Sequence record: ON528746 | Origin: Shigella phage ESh36 | DNA: 64,000 nucleotides | Direction: 5' to 3' (one strand) | Shown: in pieces, positions 8,704-14,704 of the stretch | Layout of the letters: every line of letters starts with the position of its first letter | Numbering within the stretch: the stretch's first letter is position 1 | The notes under the pieces: model-generated | Told to the model about the DNA's origin: nothing | Seen by the model: only the letters and a program-made list of their open reading frames with translations | Databases searched by the model: none | Made by a program: the position numbers and the translations under genes

Positions 8704-9039
8704 TTATTCTTCGTCTAGCTCGTCGATAAAGACGTTGATGGCCTCGATAACGGCATCATTGATAGCTAATAAAATAAAATCATCGTCAGTACCTTTAGAA
8801 GATTCTAAAGCATTGATATATGCTTGGTTGGCGAGTTCCCAAGCCTTTTTAAAATAAGGAGCTTCATCATCAGGACAAATATCCCGCACGCCTTCAAAGA
8901 TACGTTTGGCATAATCTAACACCCATTGTACAGGCATGTTTTGAGAACGTTCGTTAAACTCTTTAAAGTCCTTAGATTCAAAAAGCTCTTCAGGATAATT
9001 ATTTCTATTACAAAAAGCTTTACTAAAGTTACGTTTCAT
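8704..9039 (-). CDS. hypothetical protein (111 aa)
   Basis: ATG-initiated ORF in the e.x block. Confidence 0.5.
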   Translation of the reverse strand: MKRNFSKAFCNRNNYPEELFESKDFKEFNERSQNMPVQWVLDYAKRIFEGVRDICPDDEAPYFKKAWELANQAYINALESSKGTDDDFILLAINDAVIEAINVFIDELDEE

Positions 9040-9095
9040 AATGTTTTCCTCATTTGTATAGGCTCATAATATCTCAGTCATGAGCCTATGTAAAC

Positions 9096-9359
9096 TTATT
9101 TCATATTATTGAAATATTCTTCTGCGATTTCGTCGTTATCATGGTAAACTTTAGAAGACAGTTTAACATAACCTTCAGCAGTGAACATGTTAATCACAAC
9201 CTTTACAGTATACCACTGACCGTCTTCATTACCCATTACTGCATAAGTTTCAAACATCGGATGGTCAGGACCGATAACTTTAATATCATTCACTGTACGA
9301 CCAAAATCTTCTGAAACACATTTCATAAAGAAGTTGAACAGTTCACCGTAATTATCCAT
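9096..9359 (-). CDS. hypothetical protein (T4 e.8 position)
   Basis: Track ORF starts at TTG; start moved to ATG at 9359 (MDNYGELF) preceded by GGAGAA and lying just downstream of an early-promoter-like element. Confidence 0.45.
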   Translation of the reverse strand: MDNYGELFNFFMKCVSEDFGRTVNDIKVIGPDHPMFETYAVMGNEDGQWYTVKVVINMFTAEGYVKLSSKVYHDNDEIAEEYFNNMK

Positions 9360-9379
9360 TTCATTCTCCAAGTTGTTTT

Positions 9380-9460
9380 CTGTATCAGTAGTTGATAGTT
9401 GTATAGTACCATGGAAGAACAGAGATGTAAACAGTTTTGTGAAAAAATTTTTAGGGAATT
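9380..9460 (-). promoter_or_regulatory. early-promoter/stem-loop element (PeSL-like) upstream of the e.8-position ORF
   Basis: Minus strand: TTTCACAAAACTGTTTAC, 18-nt spacer, TACTAT; weaker inverted repeat. Confidence 0.45.
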
Positions 9461-9553
9461 CTAGGGCAGGGATGGGCAATTAAAGGATAGGATAATATAT
9501 TATAAAGGGTATAAACTAAATGATGCCTAGAGAGGCCCGGAAAGGCCTAGATA

Positions 9554-9580
9554 CCAAAAAGCCCTATCATTTAGATAGGG
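9554..9580 (-). terminator. rho-independent terminator after the IP-like gene
   Basis: Minus-strand hairpin CCCTATC-TAAAT-GATAGGG followed by CTTTTTGG. Confidence 0.55.
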
Positions 9581-9588
9581 ATTTAAAA

Positions 9589-10152
9589 TTATTTACCTAG
9601 TTTACTTATTATAGCTTCTGCAGCAGCTTTTAGCTTAGATGCAGTGTTAATACGATTTTTAATTTCAGTATACGCATCGCCAAGAACATCAAGGCTATCA
9701 GAATAAACACTTACACTATTGCGTTCGCTATTTGAAATAGAACCTTTAGTTTTGCGGTCAAAATCGGTGTACACGTCTTGAAGATCGCGGGCTGCCTTCT
9801 TTGCATCATCCAATGCATCAAGAGCTTTATTCAAAGCATTAACGTATTTTTTAGTGTCGAACATATTCTTAGAAATTTTAACAGGTGCGCGTTCAGGAGT
9901 AGCTAACACAGATTTAGGAACCTGAGCGCCAGATGCCAATTTCTTAGAAATTTTGAAAAATGCTTTATTGAATTTATTTTCTTGACTCATTGTAAAAGAA
10001 CTATTATCGATGTTGTACATTTCAATAGCTTTAGCTTTCCACTTAAGAAAATCGCCGCGGTCTTTTGGGTCCAATTGGAAGAATACTTTAGTAAGATCTG
10101 CTTCAGATGGTAATTTTGCTGCTTCGGTTAAAAATTCGGCATAGGTTTTCAT
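9589..10152 (-). CDS. internal-protein-like head protein with capsid targeting sequence
   Basis: 187 aa; N-terminus MKTYAEFLTEA (IP capsid-targeting leader); followed by a rho-independent terminator. Confidence 0.6.
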   Translation of the reverse strand: MKTYAEFLTEAAKLPSEADLTKVFFQLDPKDRGDFLKWKAKAIEMYNIDNSSFTMSQENKFNKAFFKISKKLASGAQVPKSVLATPERAPVKISKNMFDTKKYVNALNKALDALDDAKKAARDLQDVYTDFDRKTKGSISNSERNSVSVYSDSLDVLGDAYTEIKNRINTASKLKAAAEAIISKLGK

Positions 10153-10240
10153 TTAAAATCCTTGAAATAATTTATCGGTTGGTTATTAATTATTTATTAC
10201 TTTGTTACTATCCGTAACAGCGTTATCCGAGTGATTCAAA

Positions 10241-10270
10241 CTAAAAAGCCCCAACCTTTCGGTCGGGGCT
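10241..10270 (-). terminator. rho-independent terminator closing the tRNA/small-RNA transcription unit
   Basis: Minus-strand hairpin AGCCCCGACC-GAAA-GGTTGGGGCT followed by TTTTTAG. Confidence 0.6.
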
Positions 10271-10275
10271 AAGCC

Positions 10276-10586
10276 TTGCGGCAACCTTGTCGGGGTTCCA
10301 CCTGCTAAGGCAAGTGTTTGTACGAAACGCCGGGACTTGAACCCGGTTATTAAGTAGTTGACGCTACTCAATATTTTTAAAAGGCCATATCTCGACCATA
10401 TCCGAACGTTCCGTCAAAAACGCTACTCGGCTTACGGCAAAGATATTTCCTCGAATCGATAATTCGGTGCGCCGTTTCTGCTGTGATATAAGGGGACATT
10501 AACAAAACATAAAGATTTATTAATGCCAGTCCTTAAACAGGGAACATCAGTCCGACGACTTACCGGTAGCGACCCGGTTTCTTGTC
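10276..10586 (-). ncRNA. candidate stable small RNA region downstream of tRNA-Arg (tRNA-like fragment)
   Basis: ~310 nt with no convincing ORF between tRNA-Arg and a terminator; contains hairpin AGTAG-CGTCAAC-TACTT followed by a canonical T-arm CCGGG-TTCAAGT-CCCGG but no acceptor stem. Confidence 0.3.
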
Positions 10587-10662
10587 TGGTCGAGGCAGTA
10601 GGGATCGAACCTACGACCCAGGACTTAGAAGGTCCTTGCTCTTCCTTCTGAGCTATGCCTCG
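10587..10662 (-). tRNA. tRNA-Arg (anticodon UCU)
   Basis: Manual fold of reverse complement: acceptor CGAGGCA/TGCCTCG, D-arm GCTC..GAGC, anticodon loop CUUCUAA, T-arm GTAGG-TTCGATC-CCTAC, CCA encoded. Confidence 0.8.
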
Positions 10663-10666
10663 TATT

Positions 10667-10741
10667 TGGCGGACGTGATAGGATTCGAACCTATAACCAA
10701 TCGCTTAACAGGCGATCGCTCTGCCATTGAGCTACACATCC
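10667..10741 (-). tRNA. tRNA-Asn (anticodon GUU)
   Basis: Acceptor GGATGTG/CACGTCC, perfect anticodon stem ATCGC/GCGAT, loop CUGUUAA, T-loop TTCGAAT, CCA encoded. Confidence 0.75.
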
Positions 10742-10745
10742 AAAT

Positions 10746-10832
10746 TGGTGGGGAGTGATGGAGTCGAACCACCCGAGTCGCAATGACAATGAATTTACAG
10801 TCCACACCGCTACCTCTACGGGATAACTCCCC
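10746..10832 (-). tRNA. tRNA-Tyr (anticodon GUA), long variable arm
   Basis: Acceptor GGGGAGT/ACTCCCC, anticodon loop CUGUAAA, long variable arm, T-arm GGTGG-TTCGACT-CCATC, CCA encoded; D-arm pairing irregular. Confidence 0.6.
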
Positions 10833-10845
10833 TTAATTCTTAATT

Positions 10846-10920
10846 TGGTGGCCCTGGGTGGAATTGAACCACCATCTGGCGATTATGAGTCGCTTGCTTG
10901 AACCTTCCAGCTACAGGGCC
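10846..10920 (-). tRNA. tRNA-Ile (anticodon CAU; formally Met-type anticodon, as for the T4 AUA-reading tRNA-Ile)
   Basis: Acceptor GGCCCTG/CAGGGCC, anticodon loop CUCAUAA, T-arm GGTGG-TTCAATT-CCACC, CCA encoded. Confidence 0.7.
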
Positions 10921-10921
10921 T

Positions 10922-10997
10922 TGGTGCTGATTGACGGAATCGAACCGCCGACCTTCTCATTACAAGTGAGTTGCTCTACCTACTGAGCTAAATCAGC
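10922..10997 (-). tRNA. tRNA-Thr (anticodon UGU)
   Basis: Acceptor GCTGATT/AATCAGC, D-arm AGCTCAGTAGGTAGAGC, anticodon loop CUUGUAA, T-loop TTCGATT, CCA encoded. Confidence 0.8.
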
Positions 10998-11002
10998 AAA
11001 AC

Positions 11003-11092
11003 TGGCGGAGGCGATAGGATTTGAACCTATGAGTCGCCGGAGCGACTGCCGGTTTTCAAGACCGGTGCATTAAACCACTCTGCCACGCCTCC
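11003..11092 (-). tRNA. tRNA-Ser (anticodon UGA)
   Basis: Reverse complement GGAGGCGTGGCAGAGTGG...CTTGAAA...TTCAAATCCTATCGCCTCCGCCA; type II tRNA with long variable arm. Confidence 0.85.
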
Positions 11093-11094
11093 AG

Positions 11095-11168
11095 TCTCCA
11101 TACAAGGATTTGAACCTTGGACCTCCTGATCCCAAATCAGGCGCTCTACCAAACTGAGCTACACGGAG
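11095..11168 (-). tRNA. tRNA-Pro (anticodon UGG)
   Basis: Acceptor CTCCGTG/TATGGAG, D-arm GCTCAGTTTGGTAGAGC, anticodon loop UUUGGGA, T-loop TTCAAAT; CCA not encoded (abuts tRNA-Ser). Confidence 0.8.
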
Positions 11169-11178
11169 TAAATTAAAT

Positions 11179-11252
<74 letters not shown>

Positions 11253-11257
11253 AAATT

Positions 11258-11344
11258 TGGTGCGAGAAGTGGGACTCGAACCCACAAGGAAATCATTCCG
11301 CAGCATTTTAAGTGCTGTGCCTTTACCAATTTGACCATTCTCGC
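11258..11344 (-). tRNA. tRNA-Leu (anticodon UAA)
   Basis: Reverse complement GCGAGAATGGTCAAATTGGTAAAGGCACAGCACTTAAAATGCTG...GGTTCGAGTCCCACTTCTCGCACCA; type II. Confidence 0.85.
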
Positions 11345-11345
11345 G

Positions 11346-11418
11346 CTGGGAATAAAGGACTCGAACCTTTGCATCTAGCAGTCAAAGTGCTATGCCTTAC
11401 CAACTTGGCTAATTCCCA
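11346..11418 (-). tRNA. tRNA-Gln (anticodon UUG)
   Basis: Reverse complement TGGGAATTAGCCAAGTTGGTAAGGCATAGCACTTTGACTGC...GGTTCGAGTCCTTTATTCCCA; CCA not encoded. Confidence 0.8.
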
Positions 11419-11487
11419 ATTATTAACAAAGGCTCTCAAACAAGAACCCTTGATGATAGAGGGTATTAATCAGTGCGATATGAGTTA

Positions 11488-11513
11488 ATAATAACAAATA
11501 ATTCTTAAAGCAA
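11488..11513 (-). promoter_or_regulatory. candidate MotA-dependent middle promoter upstream of the tRNA cluster
   Basis: Minus-strand TTTGCTTTA (MotA-box-like) then a 12-nt spacer and TATTAT -10, about 60 nt upstream of tRNA-Gln. Confidence 0.3.
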
Positions 11514-12020
11514 ATTAAACATTTTAACTGTCGGCAAAACAATTTCTTCTTCGATATAAGCAAATTCTACATGTTCAACTACACGCAAGAAATCATATTC
11601 ATAGTATTCAGAAGCATGACCAAGAATATCAATGAGGCCTTCAGATATCTTATTACCATTCACAAAGAATAAGTCAAATACACGTTCTTCATCTTCTTCG
11701 GATTTATTACCAAGGTCAACTTCTATATCAAAAACTTTTTTAATGAATTCTGGATAAAGTTGGTCTGAGAACAGTCCTTCAACCAAATATTCATATATAA
11801 AAAGCTCCTGCTCGCTGAACAAACCATTACCACAATAACGGTCAGCTTTAGTGCTAGAATGACGACTCTTAAACTTCTTCAAGAGATATTTAAATTGCTG
11901 GAGCTCATGCTCTTCTACACCAAATAGTGTTTTGGTTTTATAGTTGTCACCATCATTTTCATAGGTAGTGACATCAATTACGTAGCCCTTAGGAATTGTG
12001 CTGCCTAAACGAATATACAT
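11505..12020 (-). CDS. hypothetical strongly acidic protein (171 aa)
   Basis: ATG-initiated ORF between the tRNA cluster and the ipI-position gene; D/E-rich, no catalytic motif. Confidence 0.5.
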   Translation of the reverse strand: MYIRLGSTIPKGYVIDVTTYENDGDNYKTKTLFGVEEHELQQFKYLLKKFKSRHSSTKADRYCGNGLFSEQELFIYEYLVEGLFSDQLYPEFIKKVFDIEVDLGNKSEEDEERVFDLFFVNGNKISEGLIDILGHASEYYEYDFLRVVEHVEFAYIEEEIVLPTVKMFNLL

Positions 12021-12316
12021 TTGCTCACCATATTAATGTAAGTATATTTAATACATTCAAGACCCAAAGGATTCTTGAAAATATCATATTCAAGAGGACC
12101 TTTTTCTGTTTCAATAAAGAAATCAAAATTTACTGTATTAAATTTGCGGTCTTCCTTTACTAATTTAACTTGAGAAGATGAACGGCCAATGTAAACCTTT
12201 TCAACTTCAAAATATGTTAAAATACCATAATCATCAATCAAGGATTTAGCTGCTTCTTGATCATATTTATATCCATTTTCAATGGATGATACTTTCGCAT
12301 AAAGAATCATTATCAA
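12005..12316 (-). CDS. hypothetical protein (103 aa)
   Basis: ORF in tight array with its neighbours. Confidence 0.4.
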   Translation of the reverse strand: MIMILYAKVSSIENGYKYDQEAAKSLIDDYGILTYFEVEKVYIGRSSSQVKLVKEDRKFNTVNFDFFIETEKGPLEYDIFKNPLGLECIKYTYINMVSKCIFV

Positions 12317-12702
12317 CCTTCATCAACAATAGTGTGCGTATTGGCATTAACTATTTGCCACCAATCAAAGCGATTAGAACCATACATCGGTTTGTTTTCA
12401 TTTTCTTTGATAATGTCACGGAGTTCATCTTCGGTAGCGGCTTTCGCTATTAAATCAGCATATCCACCACGAGGATAATAATTATCACCTGCAAAAAGTA
12501 AAAAGTTTGGTTTAATGTTATTGAACTCTTCAAGAGTAATAACTTTTCCTGACGGTTGAACAATCTCTACATATTTATATCCCAATTTTTGAGCAGCATC
12601 TACTGCTTCAAGCAAAGTATCATGAGCCCATCCAATTTGACAACCTGGCTTTTCAGATGGATTCGCCTGATAATCCGCATACACTTTATACATTCTATTC
12701 AC
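12313..12702 (-). CDS. hypothetical protein (129 aa)
   Basis: ATGA-type overlap with the downstream gene; no recognisable motif. Confidence 0.5.
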   Translation of the reverse strand: MNRMYKVYADYQANPSEKPGCQIGWAHDTLLEAVDAAQKLGYKYVEIVQPSGKVITLEEFNNIKPNFLLFAGDNYYPRGGYADLIAKAATEDELRDIIKENENKPMYGSNRFDWWQIVNANTHTIVDEG

Positions 12703-12880
12703 CTTTAGAAATTTTATCCATAACGATAGCGATTAAACCAATTAAAAATGCTACTACAAGTGAAAACACATTTTCTGCTGTAGTTAATAATCCACATATA
12801 AATCCAACAAACATTGAAAAACTAAAAGCAGAAGCAGAAATTGCAATAGCAACATTTCGAATTAATTCACAACGTTTCAT
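12695..12880 (-). CDS. small membrane protein (about 61 aa, two predicted TM helices)
   Basis: Start moved to the internal ATG (MKRCELIRN) preceded by GAGGAG and placed just downstream of an early-promoter-like element. Confidence 0.4.
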   Translation of the reverse strand: MKRCELIRNVAIAISASAFSFSMFVGFICGLLTTAENVFSLVVAFLIGLIAIVMDKISKGE

Positions 12881-12902
12881 TTTTATTCTCCTCAGTAGTT
12901 GA

Positions 12903-12963
12903 TAGGGTAATAGTATCACAACTAAAACCCTATGTAAACAACTTTGTGAAATTATTTTAAATC
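12903..12963 (-). promoter_or_regulatory. early-promoter/stem-loop element (PeSL-like) upstream of the small membrane ORF
   Basis: 32-bp block ATGTAAACAACTTTGTGAAATTATTTTAAATC identical to the copy at 13262-13293; inverted repeat ATAGGGT/ACCCTAT encloses the -10 TACTAT; GTTTAC -35 at an 18-nt spacing. Confidence 0.55.
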
Positions 12964-13209
12964 TTCTAATCGTTTCTTCATCTTAGAACCATTTTTAGCA
13001 ATTTCTCCTGCATCGGAGCATAATGCTAAAAGCGCTTTAACTTTAGTTTGATCTCCTTTAAAAGACGAAGGATCGACTGCAGCAGCAAGTTCTTTAATAC
13101 GAGAGAAAAGACGCTCAGCTTCAGCTAAAGCCATTCCAAGCTTTACTTCCATACCGTGGGAAGATTCAATGATAGTAGTTTTTGTAGCAAACTCTTTGAA
13201 AGTTTTCAT
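12952..13209 (-). CDS. internal-protein-like small head protein at the T4 ipI position
   Basis: 85 aa; N-terminus MKTFKEFATK resembles the IP capsid-targeting leader, with IIE site nearby; directly downstream of 57B as ipI is in T4. Confidence 0.5.
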   Translation of the reverse strand: MKTFKEFATKTTIIESSHGMEVKLGMALAEAERLFSRIKELAAAVDPSSFKGDQTKVKALLALCSDAGEIAKNGSKMKKRLEDLK

Positions 13210-13230
13210 TTTATTTTCCTAATTAATTTT

Positions 13231-13978
<748 letters not shown>

Positions 13979-13979
<1 letters not shown>

Positions 13980-14704
13980 TATAGTACCTTTAGTGTATTT
14001 TTAATTTTAGAAAAAAGTTCTTCAAGAGAACCATCGTTTGTAATTACTAAATCGCCATCACGAATTGGCAATCCAGCTTCTGTAATATGTGTATCATTGG
14101 ATTTTTGGCCAGGACGAACTACATGAATTACTGTAGCACCCATCGCCCTAGCCGCATCCATTTCATGATCTTGACGGGTATCAGGAACGATATAATAATC
14201 ATAACCTGAGTTAAATTTATCAAGATAATCTAAAGCAAATAATTTTACCCAGTACATGCGGTCGAAGTTATTAACAATCAAATCCGTACCTAGGGCTTGC
14301 ATCAGACGACGGACTGACCATTGATCTTCAATATTATTTATAACGTCAGCAATCTTATTAAATGCTACGAAAGTAACTGATTCTTTTCCTTCGTCATCAA
14401 AAACAAACACGCCTTTAATTGGGCTTTTACTATTAAGATAGCAAAATGCTTGTTCCATAATCGTAATTACTTCTAATTTAGTCAGATTTAAATTAGTCTC
14501 ACGATCATAATCAATTCCTTCAAACTCTTTACGAGTTAAGCAAGGATAATCATTGTTTGCTGCAAATACACCCCATGCATAAGCCAACGCATCTTTAATA
14601 GGACCAGCAAGTTGATATTTAGCTGCAGAATAATTATTCATGATAAAATCTGCAGTAGTATCTTTTCCACTACGCTTTACACCGCTTAAAAAGATTAGTT
14701 TCAT
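13979..14704 (-). CDS. 1: deoxynucleoside monophosphate kinase
   Basis: Track start is TTG; ATG at 14704 gives 241 aa MKLIFLSGVKRSGKDTTADFI (Walker A), matching T4 gp1; GAGGAG Shine-Dalgarno. Confidence 0.9.

Follow-up and report, generated by a model that had tools for sequence, protein, structure and literature searches.

The interval between the tRNA gene cluster and the ipI-position gene of Shigella phage ESh36, a Tequatrovirus, raises the question of what its four small ORFs are and whether they form a cassette foreign to T4. We analyzed the interval within a window of 64,000 nucleotides of the phage sequence (record ON528746). An earlier, sequence-only reading had placed four tightly packed minus-strand ORFs between tRNA-Gln and the ipI-position gene, and this arrangement is confirmed, with the best starts giving proteins of 171, 101, 126, and 61 aa, each start being preceded by a Shine-Dalgarno sequence. 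All genes of the locus are on the minus strand. In the order of transcription these are trna.4 (61 aa, 12695-12880), a trna.3 homolog (126 aa, 12313-12693), a trna.2 homolog (101 aa, 12005-12310), and a 171-aa ORF belonging to phrog_2290 (11505-12020), followed by ten tRNA genes (10587-11418, identified by ARAGORN and Rfam), the nearest of which is tRNA-Gln (11345-11418). The upstream neighbor is the ipI-position internal head protein gene (85 aa, 12952-13209; phrog_3499, E 8e-49). Within the four-ORF block the genes are separated by 1 and 2 nt, except that the 3' end of trna.2 overlaps the start of the 171-aa ORF by 16 nt. Rfam detects only tRNAs at 9000-14000, and a scan of the gap between the ORFs and the tRNA genes yields no intrinsic terminator.

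Because dN/dS of the four ORFs is 0-0.41 in comparisons with AR1, T4, and JS10, and the homologs of each protein number in hundreds, all four are, judged by comparative sequence analysis, real genes, and purifying selection is indicated for every one of them. Paralogy among the four proteins was ruled out by hhalign (probabilities <0.5%).

Three of the four ORFs are the T4 genes trna.2, trna.3, and trna.4 (NP_049746, NP_049747, and NP_049748, respectively), which in T4 have the same position, between tRNA-Gln and ipI, the same order, and the same strand; the protein identities are 93, 57, and 100%, respectively. The initial statement that none of the ORFs is recognizable from T4 was thus wrong for three of them. 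In Dhakavirus JS10, a synteny comparison reveals the same order, trna.4-trna.3-trna.2-ORF-tRNAs, and the position of trna.4 is common to T4, AR1, and JS10. The position is conserved in T4 and its relatives, but none of the genes carries a housekeeping annotation; conservation together with housekeeping functions had been named as the outcome that would speak against an accessory cassette, and only the former is observed. Since three genes correspond to T4 trna.2-4 and JS10 retains the gene order, the premise of a cassette foreign to T4 is not supported by the sequence comparison. The same reading had described the interval as a plasticity hotspot, and some plasticity does exist: the 171-aa ORF is present or absent, trna.3 exists with either of two N-terminal alleles, and between two 69-nt repeats the allele of ipI has been replaced. 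On balance, the interval probably represents an early transcription unit that is conserved in T-even phages and immediately precedes the tRNA cluster, rather than a novel insertion.

The genes trna.2-4 are already known as T4 early genes, and the ESh36 interval is 100% identical to that of an already deposited phage, Shigella phage ESh16. In T4, trna.2 and trna.3 are classified as "early-RNA_early-Protein" (PMC9697503, supplement), whereas trna.4 is detected as early RNA only, its protein being undetected in T4 proteomics (PMC9697503).

The beginning of the block is marked by a PeSL-type early promoter cassette (12899-12967, minus strand), identified by a promoter scan, a repeat, and a hairpin. 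The predicted promoter, of the sigma-70 early type, lies directly after the ipI-position gene and has the structure TTTACA-N17-TACTAT (12938-12910), with the -35 element starting at 12938, the -10 element TACTAT ending at 12910, and TG upstream of the latter. A hairpin formed by ATAGGGT and ACCCTAT encloses the -10 element (dG -19.3 kcal/mol, z -2.9). The ribosome-binding site GAGGAG and the ATG of trna.4 are situated just downstream of the cassette, outside its coordinates. The cassette is directly repeated (69 nt, 13229-13297, 83% identity), and the two copies flank the ipI-position gene. The last ORF had been credited with a PeSL-like promoter of its own; a PeSL-type early promoter is indeed present, but trna.4, which it precedes, is transcribed as the first gene of the entire block, and the promoter does not serve that gene alone. 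At the other end, a pattern search found a site resembling a MotA-box middle promoter, TGCTTTA-N12-TATTAT (11488-11512, minus strand), which shares positions with the 171-aa ORF's stop codon and is directed toward the tRNA genes. Such patterns occur 11 times in the window against 2.4 expected. The site is kept in AR1, JS10, and T4, in the latter without the ORF, and we infer that it may have promoter activity.

An extremely conserved member of the block is trna.4, which is identical to T4 Trna.4 at 61 of 61 residues (phrog_1692, E 6e-35), with dN = 0 in comparison with both T4 and AR1. It has homologs in 779 phage records, in 428 of them with at least 99% identity. The product had been described as a two-helix membrane protein, and the hydropathy profile again predicts two hydrophobic segments, at approximately residues 9-32 and 38-56, the ends of the protein being positively charged.

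The trna.3 homolog (phrog_1411, E 3e-55; E 4e-44 with T4 Trna.3) has a conserved C-terminal domain, NFLLFAGDNYYPxGGYxDL ... FDWWQI, and its close homologs carry PF26894. Its N-terminal half represents an allele other than that of T4, with DNA homology to T4 stopping at 12508, and identity across homologs is bimodal. The ESh36 allele is 91-92% identical in Gaprivervirus, where the product of the 171-aa ORF is only ~43% identical. The similarity of trna.2 to T4 Trna.2 extends over residues 1-91 (phrog_2023, E 4.5e-48). Its last 10 residues are unlike those in T4 and extend into the beginning of the following gene, and the protein is 6 residues longer in total. Homologs of trna.2 are found in 803 phage records and carry PF27001.

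The fourth gene has no counterpart in T4 at this site, as demonstrated by a search of the 7-kb T4 locus. Its body corresponds to a 520-bp indel relative to T4 (11525-12044, unstranded), delimited by blastn boundaries and junction sequences. In T4 the site comprises 11 bp, and ATG-CTT-TAA, located two nt beyond the trna.2 stop, survives as a relic equal to the start, last, and stop codons of the 171-aa ORF; this correspondence holds in comparison with AR1 and JS10. The 171-aa gene also fills this slot in other T4-like genera and is ancestral to it in T4-like phages, T4 having undergone a near-exact deletion from codon 2 to codon 170. The indel is not bounded by PeSLs. Among Tequatrovirus records, some have the ORF and others lack it: at identity of at least 80% it occurs in 253 records, and the T4-type junction in several hundred Tequatrovirus records.

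The 171-aa protein matches phrog_2290 over residues 1-170 (E 7.2e-65), and its homologs occur in 524 phage records, including several Straboviridae genera and jumbo phages. At E <= 1e-3 the family comprises 916 clusters at 50% identity. Within Straboviridae, the adjacency of the gene to tRNAs is partly inherited synteny, and many small ORFs gather in the tRNA regions of large phages in any case; in Aeromonas phage Riv-10, the homolog is located between 57B and the tRNAs. Residues D23, D25, F50, and N65 are invariant in the family, and W20, E21, N22, G64, F144, and R146 are nearly so; in the ESh36 protein tyrosine replaces W20, and all other such positions are kept. The WENDGD motif forms a hairpin loop, and G64-N65 and F144/R146 are conserved as well. 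The AF2 model of the protein has pLDDT 87.6 and pTM 0.81. The protein has no relative in PDB and no match in Pfam, NCBIfam, or PADLOC; a PDB sequence search aligned the ENDGD loop with an EF-hand calcium sensor at E 0.23, and metal binding by the loop on this ground would be speculation.

With Pfam (in a copy that did not contain PF26894), NCBIfam, and PADLOC, none of the four proteins had a match exceeding noise, their PHROGs matches are solely to families of "unknown function", and PDB searches with single sequences and profiles retrieved only chance matches. A literature search with the motif and the PHROG, Pfam, and UniProt identifiers returned only papers on T4 omics, DRT1, and SegB. The absence of an obvious catalytic motif had been pointed out before; no enzyme family or fold is recognizable, but the 171-aa family does have an invariant polar motif. 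The earlier observation that the proteins lack a capsid-targeting leader also stands. T4 internal proteins begin with an MKT(F/Y)xEF-type leader delimited by a prohead-protease site, and direct reading of the N-termini of the four ORFs (MYIRLG, MILYAK, MYKVYA, and MKRCEL) shows it to be missing from all of them. Such a leader, MKTFKEFATKTTIIE, is carried by the ipI-position protein, whose alignment with T4 IPI is confined to this segment, and another, MKTYAEFLTEA, by the ORF at 9589-10152.

These data support the description of the four ORFs as small early accessory genes beside the anti-restriction ipI locus, behind a PeSL-type promoter. As no enzyme homology is observed, and given the context, we infer a binding-protein mechanism, and the following roles are proposed tentatively, with the same limited confidence for all products. 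They would be small non-enzymatic early accessory proteins that bind host or defense components during takeover. The trna.4 product would span the inner membrane as an N-in/C-in hairpin; in trna.3, the conserved C-terminal domain would be combined with an exchangeable N-terminal specificity domain; and the trna.2 product may contact complexes linked to nucleic acids, for example DRT1. The 171-aa protein would act through a conserved polar pocket (WENDGD, G-N, and F-x-R), and the recurrent tRNA linkage may indicate that its target belongs to tRNA biology or to tRNA-directed defense. However, the invariant acidic and polar motif of this family might just as well be a catalytic or metal-binding site, and the low dN/dS of the four genes, together with dN = 0 for trna.4, is more consistent with a fixed, possibly phage-internal role than with an arms race. 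The sole experimental lead on the function of the four genes is the co-purification of T4 Trna.2 with DRT1: in a pull-down, it was enriched with wild-type DRT1 relative to the RT-knockout, an observation that the authors did not follow up and held unlikely to be central (PMC13275509).

More specific explanations have been considered for two of the products. The 171-aa protein was originally likened to DNA-mimic anti-restriction proteins, whose acidic surface would titrate restriction or other DNA-binding defense enzymes. The gene belongs to an early operon beside ipI, and the protein, with pI 4.63 and a net charge of -15 (-0.088 per residue), is the fourth most negative among the 73 ORFs of the window. 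However, "strongly acidic" was an overstatement, since 14 of the 73 have an equal or lower pI, and Ocr and ArdA have approximately two to three times the charge density per residue. Moreover, Pfam at E <= 1 gives no match, hence none to an anti-restriction family, and the 171-aa family is defined by an invariant loop rather than a diffuse acidic surface, all of which makes DNA mimicry very improbable. Alternatively, the same protein could work with the phage tRNA cluster, either in tRNA maturation or stabilization, or by blocking a host nuclease that attacks tRNAs, as in anticodon-nuclease-type defense, with joint expression of the tRNAs that substitute for the cleaved ones of the host. A tRNA gene lies no more than 4 kb from the homolog in 21 of 46 sequence groups and no more than 1 kb away in 13, invariably on the homolog's strand, these being raw counts without a genome-wide baseline. 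The linkage extends outside Straboviridae: in lineage L036, 34 nt separate the homolog from a tRNA, and Thg1 is upstream; in L074, which is unrelated to L036, the distance to a tRNA is 33 nt, and a CCA-adding enzyme is upstream; and in L085 the homolog is adjacent to tmRNA. The embedding of the middle-promoter-like site for the tRNAs in the stop codon of the ORF agrees with this explanation, and the conserved polar motif suggests a specific site. Still, the other 25 groups have no tRNA within 4 kb, and no other conserved neighbor is found for the family outside the T4-like synteny. In addition, the net charge makes direct RNA binding improbable, and T4 with several hundred relatives keeps the tRNAs without the gene, so that we consider a role with the tRNA cluster unlikely.

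For trna.4, a role independent of the three soluble proteins can be envisaged, that is, exclusion or protection at the membrane level, directed at superinfecting phages or membrane-acting abortive-infection effectors. Other small early membrane proteins of T4, Imm and Sp, have such roles, and trna.4 encodes a protein of 61 aa with two hydrophobic helices and positive ends; it is the first gene behind the early promoter and is extremely conserved. On the other hand, it has no homology to any characterized protein, its topology is a hydropathy prediction, and the T4 protein has escaped proteomic detection, which renders this role decidedly unlikely. Our preferred reading remains, tentatively, that of small early accessory proteins acting by binding.

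The T-even region upstream of the tRNA genes, with its four conserved early genes, was sequenced 40 years ago. The gene lost by T4 represents a very large family confined to phages, in which a polar loop is invariant and tRNA genes recur nearby on the same strand. The bolder propositions remain doubtful: that this unannotated family is tied to tRNA clusters as an acidic decoy or inhibitor of tRNA-targeting defense nucleases, or as a factor for phage tRNA expression, and, separately, that Trna.2 is a genuine partner or trigger of DRT1. Because phage tRNAs have come to be recognized as a countermeasure against defenses that cleave tRNAs, the 171-aa family is a reasonable and cheap target for knockout and defense-panel work. 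Further leads are T4 Trna.2, seen with the DRT1 defense protein, and trna.3, with its fixed C-terminal domain and an N-terminal domain swapped between genera.

Several comparisons place the locus among known systems. T7 Ocr, ArdA, T4 Arn, and the UDG inhibitor p56 are, like the 171-aa protein, small acidic early phage proteins. It has no sequence relationship to Ocr, ArdA, or Arn (Pfam, NCBIfam, and PDB) and a lower charge density, and its structural similarity to p56 is at the noise level. Its relatives are other phrog_2290 members: AR1_142 of AR1 and EpJS10_0134 of JS10, which occupy the same slot before the tRNA genes; JD18_126 of Klebsiella phage JD18, with a common predicted fold (TM 0.79); and the "RB69ORF151c"-like g135 of Yersinia phage phiR1-RT. 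All members are annotated as "hypothetical protein", and nothing known sets the ESh36 protein apart.

The promoter element resembles the described PeSL cassettes (Arbiol et al., 2010; Comeau et al., 2014, PMC4122927) in its AT-rich upstream stretch and the terminal Shine-Dalgarno sequence and start codon, and it fits the PST/T4 consensus TTTACW-N17-TAYWAT (PMC4122927). In PST, however, the hairpin is just upstream of the promoter (PMC4122927), whereas in ESh36 it encloses the -10 element. The T4 region upstream of trna.4 is 97% identical to the ESh36 early promoter region, and ESh36 differs from T4 in the other N-terminal allele of trna.3, the different C-terminus of trna.2, and the extra 171-aa gene.

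The minus-strand block at 11505-12880, bounded by tRNA-Gln (11345-11418) and the ipI-position gene (12952-13209), combines the already known trna.2-4 block of T-even phages with a member of a widespread protein family that T4 has lost. It consists of trna.4 (12695-12880, 61 aa), homologues of trna.3 (12313-12693, 126 aa) and trna.2 (12005-12310, 101 aa), and a 171-aa ORF (11505-12020) matching the PHROGs family phrog_2290. Each begins with an ATG behind a clear Shine-Dalgarno sequence; the spacers within the block are 1 and 2 nt, and the end of trna.2 overlaps the start of the 171-aa ORF by 16 nt. Because dN/dS is 0-0.41 in comparisons with AR1, T4, and JS10 and each frame has 524-803 matching phage records, the four ORFs are genes rather than chance ORFs; the plus-strand ORFs of the interval (at most 81 aa) are antisense to these conserved frames. 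Pairwise comparison of the four proteins revealed no paralogy. The window retains the T4 order of the tRNA cluster, the four ORFs, the ipI-position gene, 57B, 57A, gene 1, and gene 3. Shigella phages ESh16 and ESh34 share the segment 11400-13300 at 100% identity; 689 phage records match it, many Tequatrovirus genomes at 92-95% identity. Thus, the four packed ORFs described by the sequence-only reading are real, but its premise of novelty, that they are not known from T4, is wrong for three of them, since T4 carries trna.2, trna.3, and trna.4 between tRNA-Gln and ipI, with protein identities of 93% (residues 1-91), 57%, and 100%, respectively.

The three shared genes differ in their patterns of conservation. 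The trna.4 gene is remarkably fixed, with dN = 0 relative to T4 and AR1 and at least 99% identity in 428 records; its product is predicted to have two hydrophobic helices, and its termini are positively charged. In trna.3, DNA homology to T4 covers only the C-terminal half and ends at 12508, just before the invariant motif NFLLFAGxNYYPxGGYxDL, while the N-terminal half (12509-12693) is a different allele from that of T4. The gene is a mosaic. Its identities among phages are bimodal, and the window allele has 91-92% identity to its counterparts in Gaprivervirus phages, where identity in the adjacent genes is only 43-70%; this points to exchange of the N-terminal domain between genera. Over 12005-12034, the window trna.2 reads past the AR1 and T4 stop position, yielding an altered C-terminal tail and a length of 101 aa versus 96 in AR1 and 95 in T4. 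Homologues of trna.3 and trna.2 carry the new Pfam accessions PF26894 and PF27001, respectively.

The difference from T4 in the fourth gene is a clean 520-bp indel (11525-12044). Two nucleotides past the trna.2 stop, T4 retains the relic ATG-CTT-TAA, that is, the start codon, last codon, and stop codon of the 171-aa ORF. AR1 and Dhakavirus JS10 carry the ORF at the corresponding position (order trna.4-trna.3-trna.2-ORF-tRNAs), and Aeromonas phage Riv-10 has a homologue with 57B on one side and the tRNAs on the other. Of the 524 phage records that contain the ORF, 253 are at least 80% identical and 271 less than 60% identical; Klebsiella, Enterobacter, Aeromonas, Cronobacter, and jumbo phages are among them. 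The ORF-less T4-type junction is found in several hundred Tequatrovirus records. The simplest history would be an ancestral ORF followed by its near-exact deletion in the T4 lineage. A MotA-box-like, middle-promoter-like site (TGCTTTA-N12-TATTAT, minus strand, 11488-11512) overlaps the stop codon of the ORF and is conserved in AR1, T4, and JS10. Since it persists even in ORF-less T4, as well as in JS10, this putative promoter of the tRNA cluster probably constrains the gene's final codons, and the site may be the reason why the T4 deletion kept the last codon and stop. A terminator scan found no intrinsic terminator ahead of the tRNAs.

An exhaustive profile search with the 171-aa protein detected 916 clusters (defined at 50% identity) at E <= 1e-3, 355 of them at <= 1e-10. 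The best 150 of the 916 are stand-alone proteins whose lengths span 91-212 aa, with most at 130-190 aa. Among members 22-43% identical, D23, D25, F50, and N65 are invariant, and G12, W20, E21, N22, G64, F144, and R146 nearly so. The AF2 model is confident (pLDDT 87.6, pTM 0.81) and comprises a beta-hairpin with WENDGD at the turn, a helical bundle, and a third strand. The protein had been likened to DNA mimics on account of strong acidity. It is indeed acidic (pI 4.63, net charge -15, 19% Asp+Glu) and ranks fourth of the 73 window ORFs in charge per residue, but not exceptionally so, as 14 ORFs in the window have an equal or lower pI; a DNA mimic is unlikely.

The best account of the block is that all four products would be small early accessory proteins that are not enzymes and that act on targets in the host or its defences. 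T4 transcribes trna.2, trna.3, and trna.4 early, as it does the tRNAs; at the protein level, Trna.2 and Trna.3 are early and Trna.4 went undetected (PMC9697503). The sole experimental lead on function is the significant enrichment of T4 Trna.2, together with Inh, with wild-type DRT1 versus its RT-knockout, which the authors took no further (PMC13275509). For the 171-aa protein alone there is a main rival reading, in which its role is linked to tRNAs. Eighty IMG/VR loci encoding a relative formed 46 groups at 50% protein identity; a tRNA lies within 4 kb in 21 groups and within 1 kb in 13, counts that stand without a genome-wide baseline, and every such tRNA shares the strand of the relative's gene. 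In two of these loci the tRNA is 34 nt (L036) or 33 nt (L074) away, with a Thg1 gene or a CCA-adding enzyme upstream, respectively; in a third (L085) the relative adjoins a tmRNA. No neighbour besides tRNAs is conserved. The adjacency is partly inherited T4-like synteny, yet it recurs in many unrelated large phages, including jumbo phages of about 350 kb. The link is a lead, not a result. The interest of the block, low to moderate, rests on the unexplored 171-aa family.

The tRNA cluster itself (10587-11418) lacks segB and comprises ten genes, Asn, Tyr, and Met among them; in T4, segB interrupts a set of eight tRNAs. At 86% identity, 10401-10632 matches the T4 segment that takes in the whole of rnaD together with most of rnaC and part of tRNA-Arg. 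Near this region, the 57B homologue (13282-13737, minus strand), labelled 'RNA ligase' in RefSeq, carries the H-x-T/S motifs HSTICY and HITLSY, a pair typical of 2H phosphoesterases; a possible function as a cyclic phosphodiesterase or in RNA-end healing may merit attention. On the far side of the cluster, a 187-aa minus-strand ORF (9589-10152) starts with MKTYAEFLTEA, resembling a capsid-targeting leader, and may encode another internal head protein.

The ipI-position product shares with T4 IPI only the capsid-targeting leader. Its gene is flanked by two copies of a 69-nt cassette (12899-12967 and 13229-13297, 83% identical), as expected if internal-protein genes are exchanged as cassettes. 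The repeats account for the substituted ipI allele but not for the 171-aa indel. A hairpin surrounds the -10 box in each copy; the stem sequences differ (dG -19.3 and -17.9 kcal/mol, z about -2.8). The PeSL-like promoter previously ascribed to trna.4 as its own is a PeSL match, but because trna.4 is transcribed first, this downstream copy serves the whole four-gene block. By promoter scan, each copy contains TTTACA-N17-TACTAT with an upstream TG, and both fit the published PeSL consensus of PST/T4, TTTACW-N17-TAYWAT (PMC4122927).
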